From the sequence record NC_135728.1: 64,000 bases of DNA; one strand, 5' to 3'. Below the pieces are notes generated by a model. That model had not been told where the DNA came from and made no database searches. It saw nothing but the letters and a program-made list of their open reading frames with translations. Origin of the DNA: a phage. Below, piece after piece: positions 47,282-64,000 of this stretch (within the stretch, counting starts at the first letter, position 1; each line of letters starts with the position of its first letter). Made by a program: the position numbers and the translations under genes.

Positions 47282-47311
47282 AATTTACTTTATTGATGGC
47301 CCTGGAGTCAA
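47282..47311 (-). promoter_or_regulatory. conserved promoter-hairpin element, copy 1 (TTGACT-18-TAAATT)
   Basis: One of three near-identical 48-bp elements; hairpin GATGGCC/GGCCATC spans the -35 and spacer. Confidence 0.5.
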
Positions 47312-47330
47312 GGCCATCTAAAAATAAATT

Positions 47331-47531
47331 TTACAGGCCTACAATCTCTTTGATTCGTTTAACCGCTGCCTCAGCGCCTTGGGGGTAAAAATTATGGTAA
47401 CCAATCACGCGAGTGATACTAATCGCCGTTTGATGATCTTCATAGTCGCCCTTGAAGATTTCTTGACCGTCAATCAGCACGGCAATTTTTTCTTCTTTTT
47501 TGAAGTTAATAACGCGGATATTGTTGCTCAT
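47331..47531 (-). CDS. hypothetical protein
   Basis: AAGGAGA RBS. Confidence 0.5.
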   Translation of the reverse strand: MSNNIRVINFKKEEKIAVLIDGQEIFKGDYEDHQTAISITRVIGYHNFYPQGAEAAVKRIKEIVGL

Positions 47532-47632
47532 TTTGTTTCTCCTTTCTGGTTTTTGTGGTGGTGGGGATTAGCTCCCCCCGTTGATTGTTATTATCCACAT
47601 TCCGGACCGGATTGCAACACCCCGGAAGAAAA

Positions 47633-47647
47633 TTTTTTTTTTTTTTT
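47633..47647. repeat. T15 homopolymer tract (A15 on the coding strand)
   Basis: Fifteen consecutive T; flanked by DnaA-box-like TTATCCACA at about 47589 and hairpin GGCCCCC-ATGATC-GGGGGCC. Confidence 0.8.
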
Positions 47648-47678
47648 AAAGATAGGCCCCCATGATCGGGGGCCGTTA

Positions 47679-47798
47679 TCAGTTACTTACAGCGATAAAA
47701 TACATCCCTACGCCTAACAATATTTCAAGGGCGATGATCTCAAGCCATACCATAGCACGGCGCGCCTTATCGGTGCGGGGCTTATCCTTGGTTGTCAT
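47679..47798 (-). CDS. small membrane protein, 39 aa
   Basis: GGAGGGAAGGGGGAG RBS; MTTKDKPRTDKARRAMVWLEIIALEILLGVGMYFIAVSN. Confidence 0.35.
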   Translation of the reverse strand: MTTKDKPRTDKARRAMVWLEIIALEILLGVGMYFIAVSN

Positions 47799-47818
47799 CG
47801 TCTCCCCCTTCCCTCCTG

Positions 47819-48040
47819 TTAGCAGTTACGTGGTTTGCAATGGCCCCCAGGAGTATTATCACCACGCACATTGCAAGAAAAATTATCTCTGTCGTTGTTC
47901 GATCCATTGTTATAAAATTCCTCAAGATCAGGCCTGAAAATAAAGCGTTCGTTATTGAATCCGTCACGCCAGGCGGCTGGCTTCAAATCTTCACTAAAGG
48001 GATTAATTAACGTGGCATTATTTAAACGGTTGGCCCACAT
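47819..48040 (-). CDS. hypothetical protein (alternative to track ORF 47782-47967)
   Basis: ATG after AGAGGAA (MWANRL...); overlaps a competing frame. Confidence 0.35.
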   Translation of the reverse strand: MWANRLNNATLINPFSEDLKPAAWRDGFNNERFIFRPDLEEFYNNGSNNDRDNFSCNVRGDNTPGGHCKPRNC

Positions 48041-48389
48041 ATTTTCTATTCCTCTCAAATAGGCGATCCGCCTCAGTTAAACATATCTCATGGGCTTGAT
48101 CTCTGGTTTTAGCCTCATCAAAAACCTGTTGTGCCAGGCTGCAGCGTAGGGAGACTGGAAGATCGCTATAATAGGCGTTGACAAACGTTTGAGCGTCGTA
48201 CAGGTCTGAAAATACTTTACCCTTTCTATTATTCCCCTTGTCAACAATTGCAAGGATAACCAATACAATAGTTGCGACTACCCCCAGGAAAATAGATATA
48301 ATAAACCATAAAAAGGCGGATCTTCCCATCTTGCCAGCGATCCAGGCGTTAAACAAGGCAACCAATACAGCCAAAATAATAAATTCCAT
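48018..48389 (-). CDS. membrane protein (two TM helices)
   Basis: Start MEFIILAVLVALF after AGAGGT; second TM FLWFIISIFLGVVATIVLVILAIV. Confidence 0.5.
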   Translation of the reverse strand: MEFIILAVLVALFNAWIAGKMGRSAFLWFIISIFLGVVATIVLVILAIVDKGNNRKGKVFSDLYDAQTFVNAYYSDLPVSLRCSLAQQVFDEAKTRDQAHEICLTEADRLFERNRKYVGQPFK

Positions 48390-48453
48390 TCTATGTACCT
48401 CTTTTACAGTTCTGATTAACAATAAGGCGGCAAATATGCCGCCTGTTACCTGA

Positions 48454-48834
48454 TTAAAAATTATCGCCGTAAATCTTTCCGCTTTCTACCCATACCACCA
48501 CGCGAGGCATACTATCCCACACGTCTTGTTTTAGATTGAGCGCGTGCAATTCTTCGGTGGTGCTCATACCGGGCACGGGCTGATTGTATACTGCAAAACG
48601 ACCGCCTGCATAATCATAGGCCAGGGTTAAATCACACTGGATCATCTTTTTGATCATGGCATTAAGCATGGCGTTAGCCGCATATTGATCACGTTTTAAA
48701 GGCAACTCTTTGATTAGTTTGCGATAGTTTTCGATATGGTCGCACACTGTTTCACGTGGAAGATCTTTCATATCCTCGCGAAAGGTAACCAGGTTAAACA
48801 TAACGGTGTCAATGGCTTTAGTGGTGCTTTTCAT
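48454..48834 (-). CDS. hypothetical protein
   Basis: Leader CCACACAAAACAAAGAGGAAAAC. Confidence 0.5.
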   Translation of the reverse strand: MKSTTKAIDTVMFNLVTFREDMKDLPRETVCDHIENYRKLIKELPLKRDQYAANAMLNAMIKKMIQCDLTLAYDYAGGRFAVYNQPVPGMSTTEELHALNLKQDVWDSMPRVVVWVESGKIYGDNF

Positions 48835-48922
48835 GATGTTTTCCTCTTTGTTTTGTGTGGGGCAAACGTCTTGCCCCTTGAGTTTTAATATAGCAGGTTT
48901 TTAGGTTATTGCAACACTTTAT

Positions 48923-49546
48923 TTATGAAAAAGTCATCTCGCCATATTCATCCACATCAAACCGCCAATCATTGGCCTCGATAAGGCCGATCAGGTTTTC
49001 GGTAGTAAATTGTTCAAGATAAGCTTGCTCCAGGTCTACGTAAACCTTGCGGGATAGCTCCCGTACCGTCTCGGTGATCAGCTCTTCCAGCTCTTCAACT
49101 TTGTCCTCTTGCTTGGTGGTCAGGTCTAGCCAATTAGTATCGATGCACCCTCCTATTGTGTTTTCGTGGTGATAATGGCTAAACGGGATACGTTCAACAC
49201 TGGCTGATAGTTCGCCATCGTGCATTGTGCCGAACAAGTGACGAATTGATCGGAACTTGGTCAGGGCCTTTACTTTACGCAAGAATTTTTCTAAATCCAC
49301 GTTTTCCGCACTGATTGACGCGCCGTCACCCTGGCACCAAAAGCCTGACCAATGTACTTCGGTATCTTCAAGGCCATACTCTGGAAAAACATATTCTTTA
49401 TAGTATTCAATTACACTTTCTGCAAAAAAGTTATCCCCGCTGTGTTCTTCTCTTTCGCGTACCATTTCAATGGCTTTTTCTTTTTGTTCGTCGGTCAGCA
49501 CGTCGAAAGATAAATTGTAACCTGTGGTAATGTTAACGGTGGTCAT
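48923..49546 (-). CDS. hypothetical acidic protein (207 aa)
   Basis: CAGGAGAAAATAT leader; no confident motif. Confidence 0.5.
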   Translation of the reverse strand: MTTVNITTGYNLSFDVLTDEQKEKAIEMVREREEHSGDNFFAESVIEYYKEYVFPEYGLEDTEVHWSGFWCQGDGASISAENVDLEKFLRKVKALTKFRSIRHLFGTMHDGELSASVERIPFSHYHHENTIGGCIDTNWLDLTTKQEDKVEELEELITETVRELSRKVYVDLEQAYLEQFTTENLIGLIEANDWRFDVDEYGEMTFS

Positions 49547-49621
49547 GATATTTTCTCCTGTTTTCTTTGTTAGTGGCGGGAAGTTTTCCCGCCTATGTTT
49601 TTTAATTATACTTATTGAGAT

Positions 49622-49882
49622 TTACTTGTCAACACTATTTTTTAAATTATTGTGGCGCAAAATGTTTAAAATCTTCTCAACGTCATCAACACGGCGGCAA
49701 TTTTTAAACGCTACCAATTGCCCCATGATTTTAATCACTGGGCGGCCTTGCCAGTGCCCCTGAAGAAAGCGCGCCTTGACTTTATCGGTGGAACTATCAC
49801 GCCACCAAATAGCCTTGTTGTTGCAGTAGTAAAAATTATTCAGGATAACATCAACTTTATCAAAATTTTTTAATTTACGCAT
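49622..49882 (-). CDS. hypothetical protein
   Basis: AAAGGAGTAAACGCC leader. Confidence 0.5.
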   Translation of the reverse strand: MRKLKNFDKVDVILNNFYYCNNKAIWWRDSSTDKVKARFLQGHWQGRPVIKIMGQLVAFKNCRRVDDVEKILNILRHNNLKNSVDK

Positions 49883-49914
49883 GGCGTTTACTCCTTTCTC
49901 TCTTTGATGTGGTT

Positions 49915-49942
49915 AGTATAGCTAACCTGTTGACGATGTCAA
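49915..49942 (-). promoter_or_regulatory. sigma70-like promoter TTGACA-16-TATACT
   Basis: Read on minus strand upstream of gene 49622-49882. Confidence 0.5.
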
Positions 49943-50063
49943 TGATATTTTTAACGCCACAAAACGGCCCTGGGCGATGTTTTCAGGTTAAAGGGGGCGA
50001 TTGCATAGGTGGGGGGCCTTTTTGGCACTTATAGGGCCAACCAGGGGCGCTATTCGTAGGGTA

Positions 50064-50093
50064 GAAATAAAAAGCCCCGCACGATGGCGGGGC
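50064..50093 (-). terminator. rho-independent terminator
   Basis: On minus strand GCCCCGC-CATCGT-GCGGGGC followed by TTTTTATTTC. Confidence 0.65.
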
Positions 50094-50101
50094 GTTGGTT
50101 G

Positions 50102-50299
50102 TTAGTTGCCTTTGTGGCGGTATCGTTCCGCCTGCCGTTCACGTTCCAAAAGGAGGCCCGGCAATTTACGATCATAATGATTTCGCCAGATCTTCCCAAA
50201 TCTTTTTGGCTTATTCAGTTTATTGTTACGCTGGCGGCGTTCCGGCAGCTCTTCGGAATCATGAGATCGCTTTACAATTTTCTCAAAATTAATCTTCAT
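50102..50299 (-). CDS. small basic (Arg/Lys-rich) protein
   Basis: Start MKINFEK after GGGGGGAATAT; overlaps upstream gene end. Confidence 0.4.
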   Translation of the reverse strand: MKINFEKIVKRSHDSEELPERRQRNNKLNKPKRFGKIWRNHYDRKLPGLLLERERQAERYRHKGN

Positions 50300-50642
50300 A
50301 TATTCCCCCCTTGCTAACTTCAATATTGGCCTGAATAGCCCGGATACGGCGCTTTATAACTTCCTGATCTGTGTGATCGTATCCCCAAAAGTCCACAATT
50401 TTTGCGCCCCCTGCCTCCAAGCGGTATAGTGTTTCCTGCATCTTGTAAGCCGGGATCGGTCGCGGTGTTACTTGGTCACCTTCTTTATTTTTATACTTTA
50501 TAATATAATCTTCGTTATCGTTGAATGTCCAAAATGGATATTCTGCAAGGGCGGTACTTCCTCTTTCCTTTTTATCCTGGATCTTGTTTACAATTAAAGC
50601 CGTAGCAATAGCGCCAATAATAAAACTAGCCCCGCTGATCAT
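50289..50642 (-). CDS. membrane-anchored protein (N-terminal TM helix)
   Basis: MISGASFIIGAIATALIV; AAAGGAGAAAGTA leader. Confidence 0.5.
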   Translation of the reverse strand: MISGASFIIGAIATALIVNKIQDKKERGSTALAEYPFWTFNDNEDYIIKYKNKEGDQVTPRPIPAYKMQETLYRLEAGGAKIVDFWGYDHTDQEVIKRRIRAIQANIEVSKGGIYED

Positions 50643-50716
50643 GTACTTTCTCCTTTCAAGGTGTTAATAAATTATCTTTATAGATGGCCCTGCAGCCAGG
50701 ACCACCGAAAAAATAA

Positions 50717-50962
50717 CTATTTCACAATGCCTACAAAACAGATCCCGCCTTCACCTATATAAGCAATATCGGTCACTTTGTAGTTGGTCAAGATCTGTTT
50801 ATTTAGATCATTAATAAAATCGGTCATTGCGTTGGTGTAGTTGTCTTCCGTATCTAAGGCATAATCCCAGGTGTAAACCTTTTTACGTCCGAAGCCTTTT
50901 ACCATGATACGGGCGCTTTTGGTGTTGGTAGGGGCATAATATTTGGTGATTAGTGCTGCCAT
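50717..50962 (-). CDS. hypothetical protein
   Basis: ATAGGAG RBS. Confidence 0.5.
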   Translation of the reverse strand: MAALITKYYAPTNTKSARIMVKGFGRKKVYTWDYALDTEDNYTNAMTDFINDLNKQILTNYKVTDIAYIGEGGICFVGIVK

Positions 50963-51004
50963 GGTTTTAACTCCTATGCATTAGTTCAGTGTTAACAGTA
51001 TAAA

Positions 51005-51034
51005 GTTTACTTTATTGATGGCCCTGGTGTCAAG
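51005..51034 (-). promoter_or_regulatory. conserved promoter-hairpin element, copy 2 (TTGACA-18-TAAACT)
   Basis: Near-identical to copies 1 and 3. Confidence 0.5.
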
Positions 51035-51051
51035 GCCATCTAAAAATAAAC

Positions 51052-51393
51052 TTACTCGTTTTCTTCCAGCTCCGCAAGCTCTTCTTTTGCTTCTTCCAAC
51101 TCTGTCTGCAATTCCTGATATTCTTCATCGTCCTCAATATCCAGGCTGTCGATGTAGTCGCTAAATCCGCAGCGGTAAGCGATAGGATCTAGCTCCTTGA
51201 GGATACGCGACGGAAGAAAAGAAATGTTTCCGATCATAATTTCGCCGTAGATCTCGTCCAACCATTCATCATAGTTTTCGTCGTACTTGTCCTCGTCGAT
51301 TTCAAAGTTATCGATCTTATTCTCAAGGTCTGCGATCTGTTTTTTCAGGGCAGCGATCTGAATAGCTTTTTCTGCGGCGGTCATAGTAGTCAT
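51052..51393 (-). CDS. acidic coiled-coil protein
   Basis: AAAGGAGAAAAACACC leader. Confidence 0.5.
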   Translation of the reverse strand: MTTMTAAEKAIQIAALKKQIADLENKIDNFEIDEDKYDENYDEWLDEIYGEIMIGNISFLPSRILKELDPIAYRCGFSDYIDSLDIEDDEEYQELQTELEEAKEELAELEENE

Positions 51394-51472
51394 GGTGTTT
51401 TTCTCCTTTTGTGTGTTCTGGGAAGTTTTCCCGTTTATGTGTTTAGTATACTGATCTAAGTTAGCTTGTCAA

Positions 51473-51592
51473 TTAAAAGTTTAAGAAAAATTTTGCGACA
51501 CTGTTGGCGCTACCCATCAACATTTGCGCCAGGATGTAACCAATGATGCAAACGATAATAGTTACCTTTGTGTGCTGGCGTGTAGTACTCAT
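51473..51592 (-). CDS. small membrane protein, 39 aa
   Basis: AGGGGG RBS; MSTTRQHTKVTIIVCIIGYILAQMLMGSANSVAKFFLNF. Confidence 0.35.
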   Translation of the reverse strand: MSTTRQHTKVTIIVCIIGYILAQMLMGSANSVAKFFLNF

Positions 51593-51624
51593 CTTCAAGC
51601 CCCCTTTTTAGCTTAACTGGGATT

Positions 51625-51654
51625 AGTTTACTTTATTGATGGCCCTGGTGTCAA
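51625..51654 (-). promoter_or_regulatory. conserved promoter-hairpin element, copy 3 (TTGACA-18-TAAACT)
   Basis: Near-identical to copies 1 and 2. Confidence 0.5.
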
Positions 51655-51672
51655 GGCCATCTAAAAATAAAC

Positions 51673-52068
51673 TTAGTAAGTTTTCAGTACTTTCCCGTCC
51701 AGTCTGTCAAGCTGGATCTCGATAGCTGCAGAAAACCTATTATAAACCACATCGCCCATGGAGTCCAGCCAATCTATGACGTTATACACCTGCTCTTTAT
51801 TCTTGCAAGTCCGGATCCGTTTCATTACGTAAGACGGATCAATATTAGTGCTCTCGTTGTTGTGGTCATGCGCCTGGCCTGCTGCATTAGTTATAGATTT
51901 TACAACCACCTGAAAGGGCTTTAAGGTGCCTTTTGCGTTCATCTCACGCGCTTTTGCGGCGCGGTTGTTATATGTTACACAACGGCGGCAAATGTTGACC
52001 AAATGCATATCAATAATTTTTTCATCGTTTGCCAGTTCGTTCATGATGCGGCGTACGTTCTTATTCAT
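51673..52068 (-). CDS. hypothetical protein
   Basis: AACACAAAGGAAAAAGATC leader preceded by GGCGGGAA-ACAT-TCCCGCC hairpin. Confidence 0.5.
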   Translation of the reverse strand: MNKNVRRIMNELANDEKIIDMHLVNICRRCVTYNNRAAKAREMNAKGTLKPFQVVVKSITNAAGQAHDHNNESTNIDPSYVMKRIRTCKNKEQVYNVIDWLDSMGDVVYNRFSAAIEIQLDRLDGKVLKTY

Positions 52069-52150
52069 GATCTTTTTCCTTTGTGTTGGCGGGAAACATT
52101 CCCGCCTTTTGTGCCTAGTTTACTTGAATTTTGCAGCGTGTCAATGATTT

Positions 52151-52899: not shown

Positions 52900-53860
52900 T
52901 GTAAAATTATTTTTTGGGTAGAATTCTCCAGCCGCCACCCCTGCCAGGTTTGCAAGCTTTCACTCTCCCACCTGGTCAGTTAGGTCCTGCTAGGGCTGGC
53001 CCCGCCAGGTTGCAGCAGTTGACGCACTATGTTAGAAAAATTTTTTGAAAAGTGTTGACAACGGCCCCACCAGGTGGCACAATATACATATCGAAAGGAC
53101 GGCAGGCACCGGTGACGGGGGAGACAACCACCGGGGATGGGCGCTGCATAAAATGAGAACGGTTATCATTATCATTTAAAAATTTATGCAAAAAGTCCTT
53201 GCTTTCTTTGTCCTGTGTGATACTATAATAACAAGCCGGGGCAGCAGGGGCCGGGAGACAATCACCGGGCCTGCCCGTTATTCTGCAAACGAGAATGATT
53301 ATCATTCAAAATTCTAAATGAGAACTCCTCGCATTTAATAAATTTAATTAGCATGCTAATTACCATCCGTAACAATTTCCTATAAAACAGTATCCACTAA
53401 AATATTCCCATATAGAAATTTTAAAAATCCATTTCTGAAAACGAAAAATCGATTTCGTCCCCAAAAATTTCAGGTCGAGAGCCGGAACGATTTCCAGAAA
53501 ATCCGATTCAGAAAACGAAAAACAGATCGAGTACTGAGAAATTTATCGAGAAAAATTTTCAGAAAATTCAATCTTTGAAATGAAAAACAGATCGAGTACC
53601 TGGAAAGCTGCACCGCAACTTCAAGATAGTGGTTAGATTGTTACCATAGAAGGTCAAGGGTAAGTGGAGGGAGTTATAGTAGAAGGATGTGAGTATGTGC
53701 AGGAAATCTGTAATGGTGGTCTGGAATATGGTGCAAACGATAGGATGGGTGATTCAGCTTGTCGCGCCCACTCTGAAAAAATCCATTTTAGTTTTCGATC
53801 CATTTTCTGATTTTCTAAGGATTTTAAAATATCCAGCCCGGTGAAATATCAAAAGGAGGA
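52900..53860. repeat. about 1 kb ORF-poor region with several direct-repeat families
   Basis: CC..CCAGGT-type motifs; two related 80-nt units containing GGGAGACAA(C/T)CACCGGG and GAGAA(C/T)G(G/A)TTATCATT; three GAAAACGAAAAACAGATCGAGTAC-type repeats about 70 bp apart; AAATCCATTTTAG repeats. Confidence 0.55.
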
Positions 53861-53882
53861 AATCCATTTTAGAAATCCTCCT
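53846..53882 (-). terminator. probable rho-independent terminator
   Basis: On minus strand GGAGGA-loop-TCCTCC followed by TTTTGATATTTC, just past gene 53913-54242. Confidence 0.45.
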
Positions 53883-53912
53883 TACACTTGATATGCCAGG
53901 AATTTTCAAGTA

Positions 53913-62483: not shown

Positions 62484-64000
62484 ATGGTAATAAATAATAC
62501 GACGAACACCTTCATCGTACCACCCACGCTTCACCATTTGGTGGTGCATGAGTATCCCAACTAAGTCACACAGCGATGCACCACCATTTTGTTGGTATGC
62601 ATTAAGTAAAGAGTGTTTAGATCTGGTCCAGATAGCATGACCATCGAAAGAGTAGATAAACTTCTTACCTGTTGCTTCCCAGAATTTCTCCAGATCCTCT
62701 TTGCGCCCCTTAAGACCGGGGTTGGCATCCCAAAGTGCATCTATTACCCTTTGCCCCAACTCTGGAGAGATGTCCAACATATCTGCAACTTTATCTTTTT
62801 GTGCCCCGTACATAACACCATACGTGATAGGTTTACCGTCGTTACGGGACACCTCTCTGCCTGCTACTTTTGTATATGCCTCGGCATTGTTTTGGTGTGC
62901 GTCTCCGTTACTTACAACATCATAATACAGGCCGTTGTCGAACTCAAAGGCACCCCAAGCCCCGATAAGCTGCTCTAAGTTGGACCCGTCAATACCGATC
63001 TGAAAGTATCCGGGAGGAACACCCCATAGACTACGCATCTCTTTACCCATAACCACTTTAGGAGATGGTTTAGGCATGTTTGCACAAATACTGTGTTTCT
63101 GTCTGGAAGTGTTTGTTAGCCCAGAACTTTTAGCAGGAAGCTTATGGTCAATCTTCAAACGTGGGTGATTAAGAAGACCAGTATCAACCTTATCCTCCTT
63201 GATTGGGTCAAGGACCGATCTGCGGTTTCGCAATGATAACCACAAGACGATATCTTTAGCCATCTCTCCGTTCAATTTTTCAAGATTCGGACACAGGTGT
63301 CCAAACGTATCTTTCAGTTGCGGAGAAGTAATAAGTGCCCTGGCTTTTCTACGTATTTTCCCGAACACTTCCTTTTTAATCCTTTCGGAGTTAGGAAAGC
63401 TTCGGAACTTGTGCACGGTTGTCTGGAACTTAGCATCAGTTTTGTTCCAGAAGTTGATAATTAGGTCACAATACTCTGACTCTAAAAGCTCGTCCATATA
63501 AGCATATACTCGTGCATCAACATCTGCATCAGGTAGAGCTTTCTTCTTGCTGTCTTTAGTTACATCCTTAGTTCTCCACATTGTCGGGAGCCAGCCAGCG
63601 CTGATCAGATACCGCTTAATGTCGTCCTGATTGCTGATTTTCATAGGTATCTTGCAGTCCGGCATTCGCTTCTGCTGTAGATCACTTATTGCCTGATCCA
63701 TCAGCTCTTTAGGCAAAGGGTGTGGTGTGGAAGTTCCCTTAATATAGCCTCTCAAGAAATCAGCCATCTTATCGGGGTCTTTGCAGCCCATCTCTTCACA
63801 CCATTTTATCCCCATCTTGCTGACATCCCCTGTAGAGGTAAATGCTCTCTTAGGCGGGGCTTTGAACTCTAAAGCGCTCATGTCTACAGGATAGCCAAGC
63901 TTATCTTTTAACCATTTCCAACCATTATTAGAGATTGTCCCGTCTTGGTTAAACGGCTTTTCAGGGAACTTGGGCCGCTGAGACATTGACAGCTCTTTTA
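62484..64000 (-). CDS. DNA polymerase family A, exon 1 (partial; N-terminus may lie beyond the window)
   Basis: Motif B-like KPITYGVMYGAQ; ends ...VRRIIYYH (cf. Pol I RMIMQVH-DE); reading frame stays open upstream of the track start at 63986. Confidence 0.8.

Follow-up and report, generated by a model that had tools for sequence, protein, structure and literature searches.

The locus examined here lies in a stretch of 64,000 nucleotides (nt) of phage DNA (sequence record NC_135728.1; the whole stretch is called the window below), in which an element of about 50 nt is repeated between small leftward genes. It raises the question of what is being repeated: a promoter with an operator, as was proposed in a first-pass annotation, a terminator, or a signal that acts in the RNA. 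The best explanation that we can offer, and to which we would give an even chance, is that the element is an intercistronic RNA module that carries an RNase III-type processing signal and is also a substrate for recombination.

By its sequence, the phage is a Vequintavirus of the Escherichia coli rV5-like kind. Approximately 6 kb around the repeats are 98.5% identical to Escherichia phage Murica and 90-97% identical to about 120 other Vequintavirus (rV5-like) records. Every gene of the repeat region is on the minus strand and is a small ORFan. The nine proteins flanking the repeats are all in PHROGs, with function unknown, and the only Pfam match above the cut-off among them is a T7 gp1.1-like one. 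Many near-consensus TTGACA-N16/17-TATAAT promoters and several hairpin-plus-U-tract terminators were found in the region by a promoter and terminator scan and in Table S4 of the rV5 genome paper; the region is the early arm transcribed by the host polymerase. The element is undescribed in the rV5 genome paper, the repeats being absent from both the promoter and the terminator list of Table S4.

Three near-identical repeats had been reported, each containing the palindrome GATGGCC/GGCCATC and each located upstream of a small minus-strand gene. All of this was borne out. The 26-nt core TTGATGGCCCTGGWGTCAAGGCCATC occurs exactly three times in the window (47293-47318, 51015-51040 and 51636-51661, in plus-strand coordinates) and in none of 100 shuffled sequences. 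Two points had been overlooked. The palindrome is the mere core of a longer imperfect hairpin, which spans all 51 nt of the full repeat unit, and there is a fourth, diverged copy (D, 71% identity), which was found by repeat search, nhmmer and a covariance model. Copies B and C are 100% identical, and copy A shows 92% identity to the reference copy. The four copies lie within 4.4 kb; no others were detected in the 64-kb window by nhmmer or by the covariance model with filters off. A weak match at 62600-62672 was rejected as a further copy, as it falls in coding sequence. Read on the minus strand, each copy opens with the stop codon of the upstream gene (TAA in A-C, TAG in D), and the next start codon is 32-46 nt past the repeat end. 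Each copy is within an operon, behind the promoter-proximal gene, and in the promoter and terminator scan no copy fell on a canonical promoter or U-tract terminator of the region. Plus-strand open reading frames (ORFs) that begin inside the repeats (MMAL(E/V)SRPSKNK..., 47293-47388 and 51015-51164) run antisense to conserved genes and were dismissed as by-products of the repetition. From right to left, the copies and their parts are the following.

51625-51675, minus strand: copy C, with the stop codon TAA of a 131-amino acid gene at 51673-51675
51664-51673 and 51625-51634, minus strand: 5' arm and 3' arm of the lower stem of copy C
51652-51661 and 51638-51647, minus strand: arms of the upper stem of copy C, with the tetraloop ACAC at 51648-51651 and the internal-loop bases AAU at 51635-51637
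51649-51654 and 51625-51630, minus strand: -35 (TTGACA) and -10 (TAAACT) hexamers of copy C
51004-51054, minus strand: copy B, a 20-bp interrupted hairpin, with the stop codon TAA of a 113-amino acid gene at 51052-51054
51028-51033 and 51004-51009, minus strand: -35 (TTGACA) and -10 (TAAACT) hexamers of copy B
51014-51016, minus strand: AAU of copy B, near which an RNase III-type cut is predicted
50670-50720, minus strand: copy D, of the same predicted structure, with the stop codon TAG of an 81-amino acid gene at 50717-50719; upper stem GGUGGUCCUG/CAGGGCCAUC with the loop GCUG; CTGGCT at the -35 position and a -10-like GATAAT 17 nt downstream
47282-47332, minus strand: copy A, its 5' end overlapped by the stop codon TAA (47331-47333) of a 66-amino acid gene; loop ACUC, -35 TTGACT, -10 TAAATT

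In the sense (minus) strand, all four copies were folded by RNAfold into the same structure: two stems of 10 bp each are separated by a 2x3 internal loop (UA/AAU), the lower one being rich in A-U, and the upper one, with six G-C pairs, being capped by a tetraloop. The lower stem opens with a pair formed by the last base of the stop codon; in copy A, in which the stop codon is one base further upstream, RNAfold adds one pair to the stem so that this base is included. The folding energies of the sense strand were between -22.0 and -24.3 kcal/mol (z-scores -4.7 to -7.7), whereas those of the complementary strand were between -8.1 and -16.4 kcal/mol; the values for the two strands were -24.3 and -16.4 kcal/mol with copy B, and -22.1 and -8.1 kcal/mol with copy D. 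The opposite strand folds far worse because several of the pairs are G.U. The hairpins are among the most stable local folds of the minus strand between 42 and 64 kb. An Rfam search with the elements returned no family.

To follow the structure through related phages, 44 copies (33 of them distinct) were aligned, which came from the window, from eight records of related phages and from two contigs of IMG/VR; a scan of IMG/VR with CAGGGCCATCNATAAAG yielded only these two vequintavirus contigs plus chance matches. In the 33 distinct copies 96.7% of the cells of the 20-pair structure were paired, compared with 37-55% when the 3' partners were slid by 1-3 columns. Four lower-stem pairs vary on both sides (G-C to A-U, U-A to C-G, U-A to A-U or G-U, and A-U to U-A), and five upper-stem pairs vary through wobble only. 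The observed paired fraction and covariation score were reached by none of 500 column shuffles. Within the window itself, the lower stem of copy A has an A-U pair where B and C carry G-C, a compensatory change, and the left arm of copy D (GGTGGTCCTG versus GATGGCCTTG) carries three changes in the upper stem, all of which preserve pairing, on the sense strand only; two further differences between D and B are in the loop. Copy D has kept the hairpin and lost the promoter geometry, with CTGGCT in place of TTGACA in all phages examined. The same is true of one IMG/VR copy (L012:2829), whose hairpin is retained with a loop of 5 nt and a 3' internal loop longer by one base, and in which TTGATA is followed by a spacer of 20 (or 15) nt. 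The covariation, together with the retention of the hairpin where the promoter geometry is lost, therefore argues for an RNA structure and not for a double-stranded DNA operator. Judged from these alignments, the feature under selection is the hairpin as coding-sense RNA.

The same data bear on the suggestion that the palindrome is a common operator, that is, a double-stranded DNA site for a dimeric phage or host repressor which co-regulates the downstream genes. It is true that a 7-bp perfect inverted repeat, GATGGCC-N10-GGCCATC, overlaps the promoter-like hexamers in three copies. However, the symmetry extends to 20 pairs only if G.U is allowed, and only on the sense strand, and the changes between copies maintain RNA pairing rather than the identity of the half-sites: in copy D one half-site is broken at two of seven positions and the RNA pairing is kept. 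The centres of the half-sites are 17 bp apart, which is not one or two helical turns, and hairpins at cassettes in other phages (Seuratvirus and Nonagvirus, see below) have stems unrelated in sequence. Taking into account also that copy D and L012:2829 have lost the promoter geometry, the single-repressor proposal is not supported, and we regard an operator function of the palindrome as highly improbable. A far more operator-like array is present elsewhere in the window, at 1146-1231, where four head-to-tail units of 21-22 nt (GTGTCCGTATCACGGACAGTTA), each a palindrome TGTCCG-N5-CGGACA, lie in AT-rich non-coding DNA; on sequence grounds these look like genuine protein-binding operator sites.

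A more serious alternative is that the elements are primarily sigma-70 promoters which start transcription of the downstream small genes, the hairpin being secondary. The sigma70-like hexamers are present on the minus strand as had been described (TTGACA/TTGACT, an 18-nt spacer and TAAACT/TAAATT), with 10/12, 10/12 and 9/12 matches in copies C, B and A, respectively. In the folded RNA the -35 hexamer corresponds to the top of the upper stem and half of the loop, and the -10 hexamer to the 3' end of the lower stem, where it is paired with the AT-rich upstream tract. The -35 agrees completely or almost completely with the consensus, the key positions A2 and T6 are present in the -10, the AT-rich tract upstream is UP-like, and the next start codon follows at a suitable distance (45-60 nt). 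The predicted rV5 promoter P194 likewise has TAAACT (rV5 paper), and the two loop bases that fall within the -35 (A and C) are invariant in 23 of 24 A-C-type copies, whereas the other two loop bases vary. Moreover, promoter activity has been demonstrated for those promoter-early stem-loop (PeSL) units of phages RB49 and phi1 in which the stem-loop covers the -35 (PMC2839356).

On the other hand, the 18-nt spacer and the 4/6 match of the -10 are weak in comparison with the neighbouring promoters, which have 11-12/12 matches and 16-17-nt spacers. Matches of at least 9/12 are common nearby: 46 were found in the scan versus 26.7 expected from shuffles, an excess of only about 1.7-fold. The -35 of copy D matches at only 3/6 positions, and, as described above, this copy and L012:2829 keep the hairpin and not the promoter geometry. 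Every base of the -10 and of the upstream tract is also in the lower stem and varies in compensatory fashion, so the conservation of these bases can be explained by pairing without invoking a promoter. No promoter is annotated here in the rV5 paper, which predicted 33, or in any GenBank record examined. These observations make it unlikely that the elements are primarily promoters; the odds that promoter function is added to the hairpin are roughly even. The earlier description of promoter-hairpin elements upstream of leftward genes is fair as a description.

The position of a stable GC-rich hairpin directly behind a stop codon is also that of an intrinsic terminator, and the hairpin might be an attenuator or terminator of transcription that insulates neighbouring cassettes, as was proposed for the PeSL stem-loops, which lowered expression of a downstream reporter (PMC2839356). 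In the Murica record (KT001917) copies A and D are indeed annotated 'terminator'. Unlike intrinsic terminators, the elements have no 3' U-tract on either strand, neither behind the upper stem, where AAUAAAGUAAA follows, nor behind the whole hairpin; there is a T-rich run 5' of the stem. The scan that called the genuine U-tract terminators of the region called none of the four copies, and the ARNold/MFOLD search in the rV5 paper omitted the elements. Between copies A and D and the start codons that follow them there is no promoter match of 10/12 or better; the downstream genes would thus have no strong promoter of their own, and efficient termination would silence them. In view of these data a terminator role appears improbable.

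What remains to be accounted for is a conserved hairpin in the messenger RNA between two cistrons. By its proposed mechanism, it most resembles the RNase III sites between the early genes of phage T7 (R0.3, R0.5, R1, R1.1 and R1.3). When the T7 early intergenic regions were folded, a lower stem with a stop codon in it or beside it was seen, then an internal loop and an upper stem of 9-10 bp with G.U pairs. The elements studied here are similarly intercistronic, start at or beside the upstream stop codon, and consist of a lower stem, an asymmetric internal loop, an upper stem of this length with G.U pairs, and a small loop. As in R0.5, the upstream stop codon is within the lower stem. In the upper stem of copies A-C, pairs 8 and 9 are U.G and U-A, located under one closing pair and the tetraloop, and the same arrangement was obtained in the fold of R1.1. 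T7 minor E. coli promoters are annotated at 1514 and 3113, within or next to the R0.5 and R1 intergenic regions. Unlike the T7 sites, to which they have no detectable sequence homology, the elements have a lower stem of almost pure A-U, copy D is without the distal-box U.G, and cleavage is only predicted. A resemblance of the upper-stem arms to the arms of T7 R1, in swapped order, was not taken as homology because much of it follows from the palindromic GGCC core.

The substrates of E. coli RNase III comprise about two helical turns, with an internal loop that confines cleavage to one strand, and the cut leaves a protective 3' hairpin (PMC1540722). UA/UG was reported as the optimal distal box, a G-C pair at position 2 of the proximal box as inhibitory, and 11 bp from the cut to the tetraloop as the extent of a minimal substrate (PMC1540722). 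In the predicted fold all four copies have this shape, with 10 + 10 bp and a 2x3 internal loop. The second pair above the internal loop, which is the equivalent of proximal-box position 2, is A-U in copies A-C, with no inhibitory G-C. Since the element is inside an operon, behind the promoter-proximal gene, a processing site would be useful there. We envisage that transcripts reading through from the upstream promoter would fold, over the 51 nt that begin with the stop codon, into the two-turn hairpin, which would serve as an RNase III-type processing and 3'-end-protecting signal comparable to those between the T7 early genes. Cleaved at the internal loop, the transcript would release the downstream cistron, and the upper stem would cap the upstream message. 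In three of the four copies the hexamers TTGACW-18-TAAAYT could add a weak internal promoter, making the element a composite of the PeSL type.

A gene resembling T7 gene 1.1, which in T7 is just downstream of the R1.1 RNase III site, is found in the same part of the window: the 65-amino acid protein encoded at 50102-50299 matches Pfam Phage_1_1 (T7 gp1.1) with 42.4 bits, the cut-off being 21, and its gene sits in the operon headed by copies B and D.

As a kind of element, the closest one described appears to be the PeSL cassette of T4-like phages (RB49, phi1, PST and nt-1; Arbiol et al. 2010, PMC2839356; Comeau et al. 2014, PMC4122927). In both cases the element is intergenic, and the upstream stop codon is followed by an AT-rich tract, sigma-70-like hexamers, a stem-loop, and then a ribosome-binding site and start codon. 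The stem-loops contain G-T pairs, and one PeSL subclass has its stem-loop over the -35. Both are repeated in an ORFan-rich, plastic early region, in which recombination between copies accounts for insertions and deletions between close relatives. The differences are also clear. The present host phage is a Vequintavirus and not a T4-like myovirus; the family is very small, with four copies in 4.4 kb, while the hyperplastic regions of RB49 and phi1 are densely filled with PeSL motifs; and the interrupted 20-bp helix takes in the whole promoter including the -10, in contrast to the short G-run/C-run hairpin of PeSL. Finally, promoter and terminator activity and mini-circle formation have been measured for PeSL (PMC2839356; PMC4122927), whereas our element is known from sequence alone.

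A second composite family was noticed in the window (49566-49602, 51408-51444 and 52088-52106). It consists of strong TTGACA-N16-TATAAT/TATACT promoters followed immediately by a conserved hairpin in the 5' untranslated region (UTR), of the GGCGGGAAAACTTCCCGCC type, and matches the PeSL subclass in which the stem-loop is downstream of the -10.

Their near-identity over about 50 bp and their direct orientation make the copies substrates for homologous recombination, by which copies are homogenised and ORFan cassettes deleted or shuffled. The cassettes bounded by copies C, B and D are as follows.

51055-51624, minus strand: C-B cassette, with an ORF for a 39-amino acid membrane peptide, a promoter with a 5'-UTR hairpin, and an ORFan for a 113-amino acid coiled-coil protein
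51445-51472, minus strand: strong promoter of the C-B cassette, TTGACA-16-TATACT, followed by the 5'-UTR hairpin
50721-51003, minus strand: B-D cassette, with an 81-amino acid ORFan (50717-50962) whose stop codon is inside copy D

Precise deletions of either cassette were found in related phages. In ime, ECP26 and the IMG/VR contig L011 there is a single element in which the left flank of C is joined to the right flank of B, a 621-bp cassette being absent; for magaca the only evidence of the same C-B deletion is a single-piece BLAST match. In 241Ecol014PP the left flank and stem of B run into the right flank of D within one element, with the crossover within ATAAAG, and the 81-amino acid gene has been removed. 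The C-B deletion occurs on two alleles of the left-flank gene that share about 87% identity; the allele of ime belongs with that of Alma (99.3%), and the allele of ECP26 with those of rV5 and Wec196 (about 97%). The deletion therefore arose at least twice. Of about 120 records, 114 contain the C-B cassette and 116 the B-D cassette; the BLAST evidence for carriers of deletions is limited to the single-piece matches (ime and magaca) and these cassette counts. Private variants are shared by copies within one genome (TTTTCAG in copies B and C of Wec196, the loop ACTT in copies A and B of rV5), which points to gene conversion. Comparison of these genomes indicates that recombination between copies deleted the intervening genes in related phages.

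Two observations concern the genes around copy C. The 131-amino acid gene upstream of it (51673-52068) exists as two alleles of about 87% identity among vequintaviruses that are otherwise 95-99% similar, which points to mosaic exchange in the region. Directly downstream of copy C, a conserved gene for a hydrophobic peptide of 39-40 amino acids (51473-51595, phrog_16391) is unannotated in Murica and annotated as gp188 in rV5.

The 81-amino acid gene (50717-50962) has homologues, 30-45% identical, in Seuratvirus, Nonagvirus, Pseudomonas myoviruses and T7-like Klebsiella phages. In the Seuratvirus Skure, hairpins of this architecture stand on either side of the homologue, with an unrelated upper-stem sequence and no TTGACA. 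A similar hairpin is located one gene downstream of the homologue in the Nonagvirus JenP1, and a T7-like Klebsiella phage has another in its early region, directly upstream of the homologue. As a speculation with little chance of being right, the elements would be joints in a system of gene cassettes that needs no integrase and extends beyond the T4-like phages. Hairpin-bounded ORFan cassettes would excise as mini-circles through recombination between the conserved joints and pass between unrelated coliphage families (the 81-amino acid gene is hairpin-flanked in both Vequintavirus and Seuratvirus), the RNA hairpin ensuring processing and expression of the inserted cassette.

Several points weigh against the interpretation of the element as an RNA processing module. 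The covariation reflects few independent events because the copies have been homogenised and the phages are close relatives; most compensatory cells stem from the split of A versus B/C and that of D versus the rest. In copy D the distal-box position is C-G instead of U.G, followed by U-A, and the second pair of the upper stem is G.U, so that it departs from the R1.1 pattern at both places, although the latter pair is not G-C. The mapping of the boxes onto R1.1 was inferred from the text of the paper and the T7 sequence, not from the figure, and an upper stem of 10 bp is at the lower limit for an RNase III substrate. The authors of the PeSL study ascribed the effect of the stem-loops to transcription termination and not to processing (PMC2839356). 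In the literature no usable Vequintavirus transcriptome or experimental RNA-end data were found. The hairpins of Skure, although the two best covariance-model matches in 29 kb, are weak ones (E = 0.025 and 0.23). Because copy D is without the U.G pair and the box mapping is indirect, we rate the RNase III reading as an inference; that the hairpin is an RNase III-type processing site is given a chance that is even at best, or slightly below.

Two further observations were made in the course of this work. Between about 52900 and 53900 the window contains approximately 1 kb without a convincing ORF, with three 57-nt direct repeats (53411-53606) and a long hairpin (53845-53900). It probably corresponds to the 'non-coding' box on the rV5 map, and an origin or regulatory region may be located there. 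In GenBank, seventeen 'Campylobacter phage' records (MG0656xx), of which at least one carries the mark UNVERIFIED, share 95-97% identity with E. coli vequintaviruses over the repeat region; mislabelling of the host or contamination of the samples is the probable explanation.

For the annotation of these phages, the analysis corrects the databases, in which two copies are labelled 'terminator' and two are unlabelled. The Vequintavirus group, which is used in phage therapy and biocontrol, gains a model, open to test, for the punctuation of its early ORFan operons. The natural recombinants are evidence by which the PeSL idea of regulatory joints that double as recombination sites is extended beyond the T4-like phages. 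Of interest for phage engineering, the four joints are sites of cassette loss without evident loss of viability, since the carriers of the deletions are isolated and propagated phages. If the RNase III prediction is true, the element would be a compact, portable module for processing and insulation.

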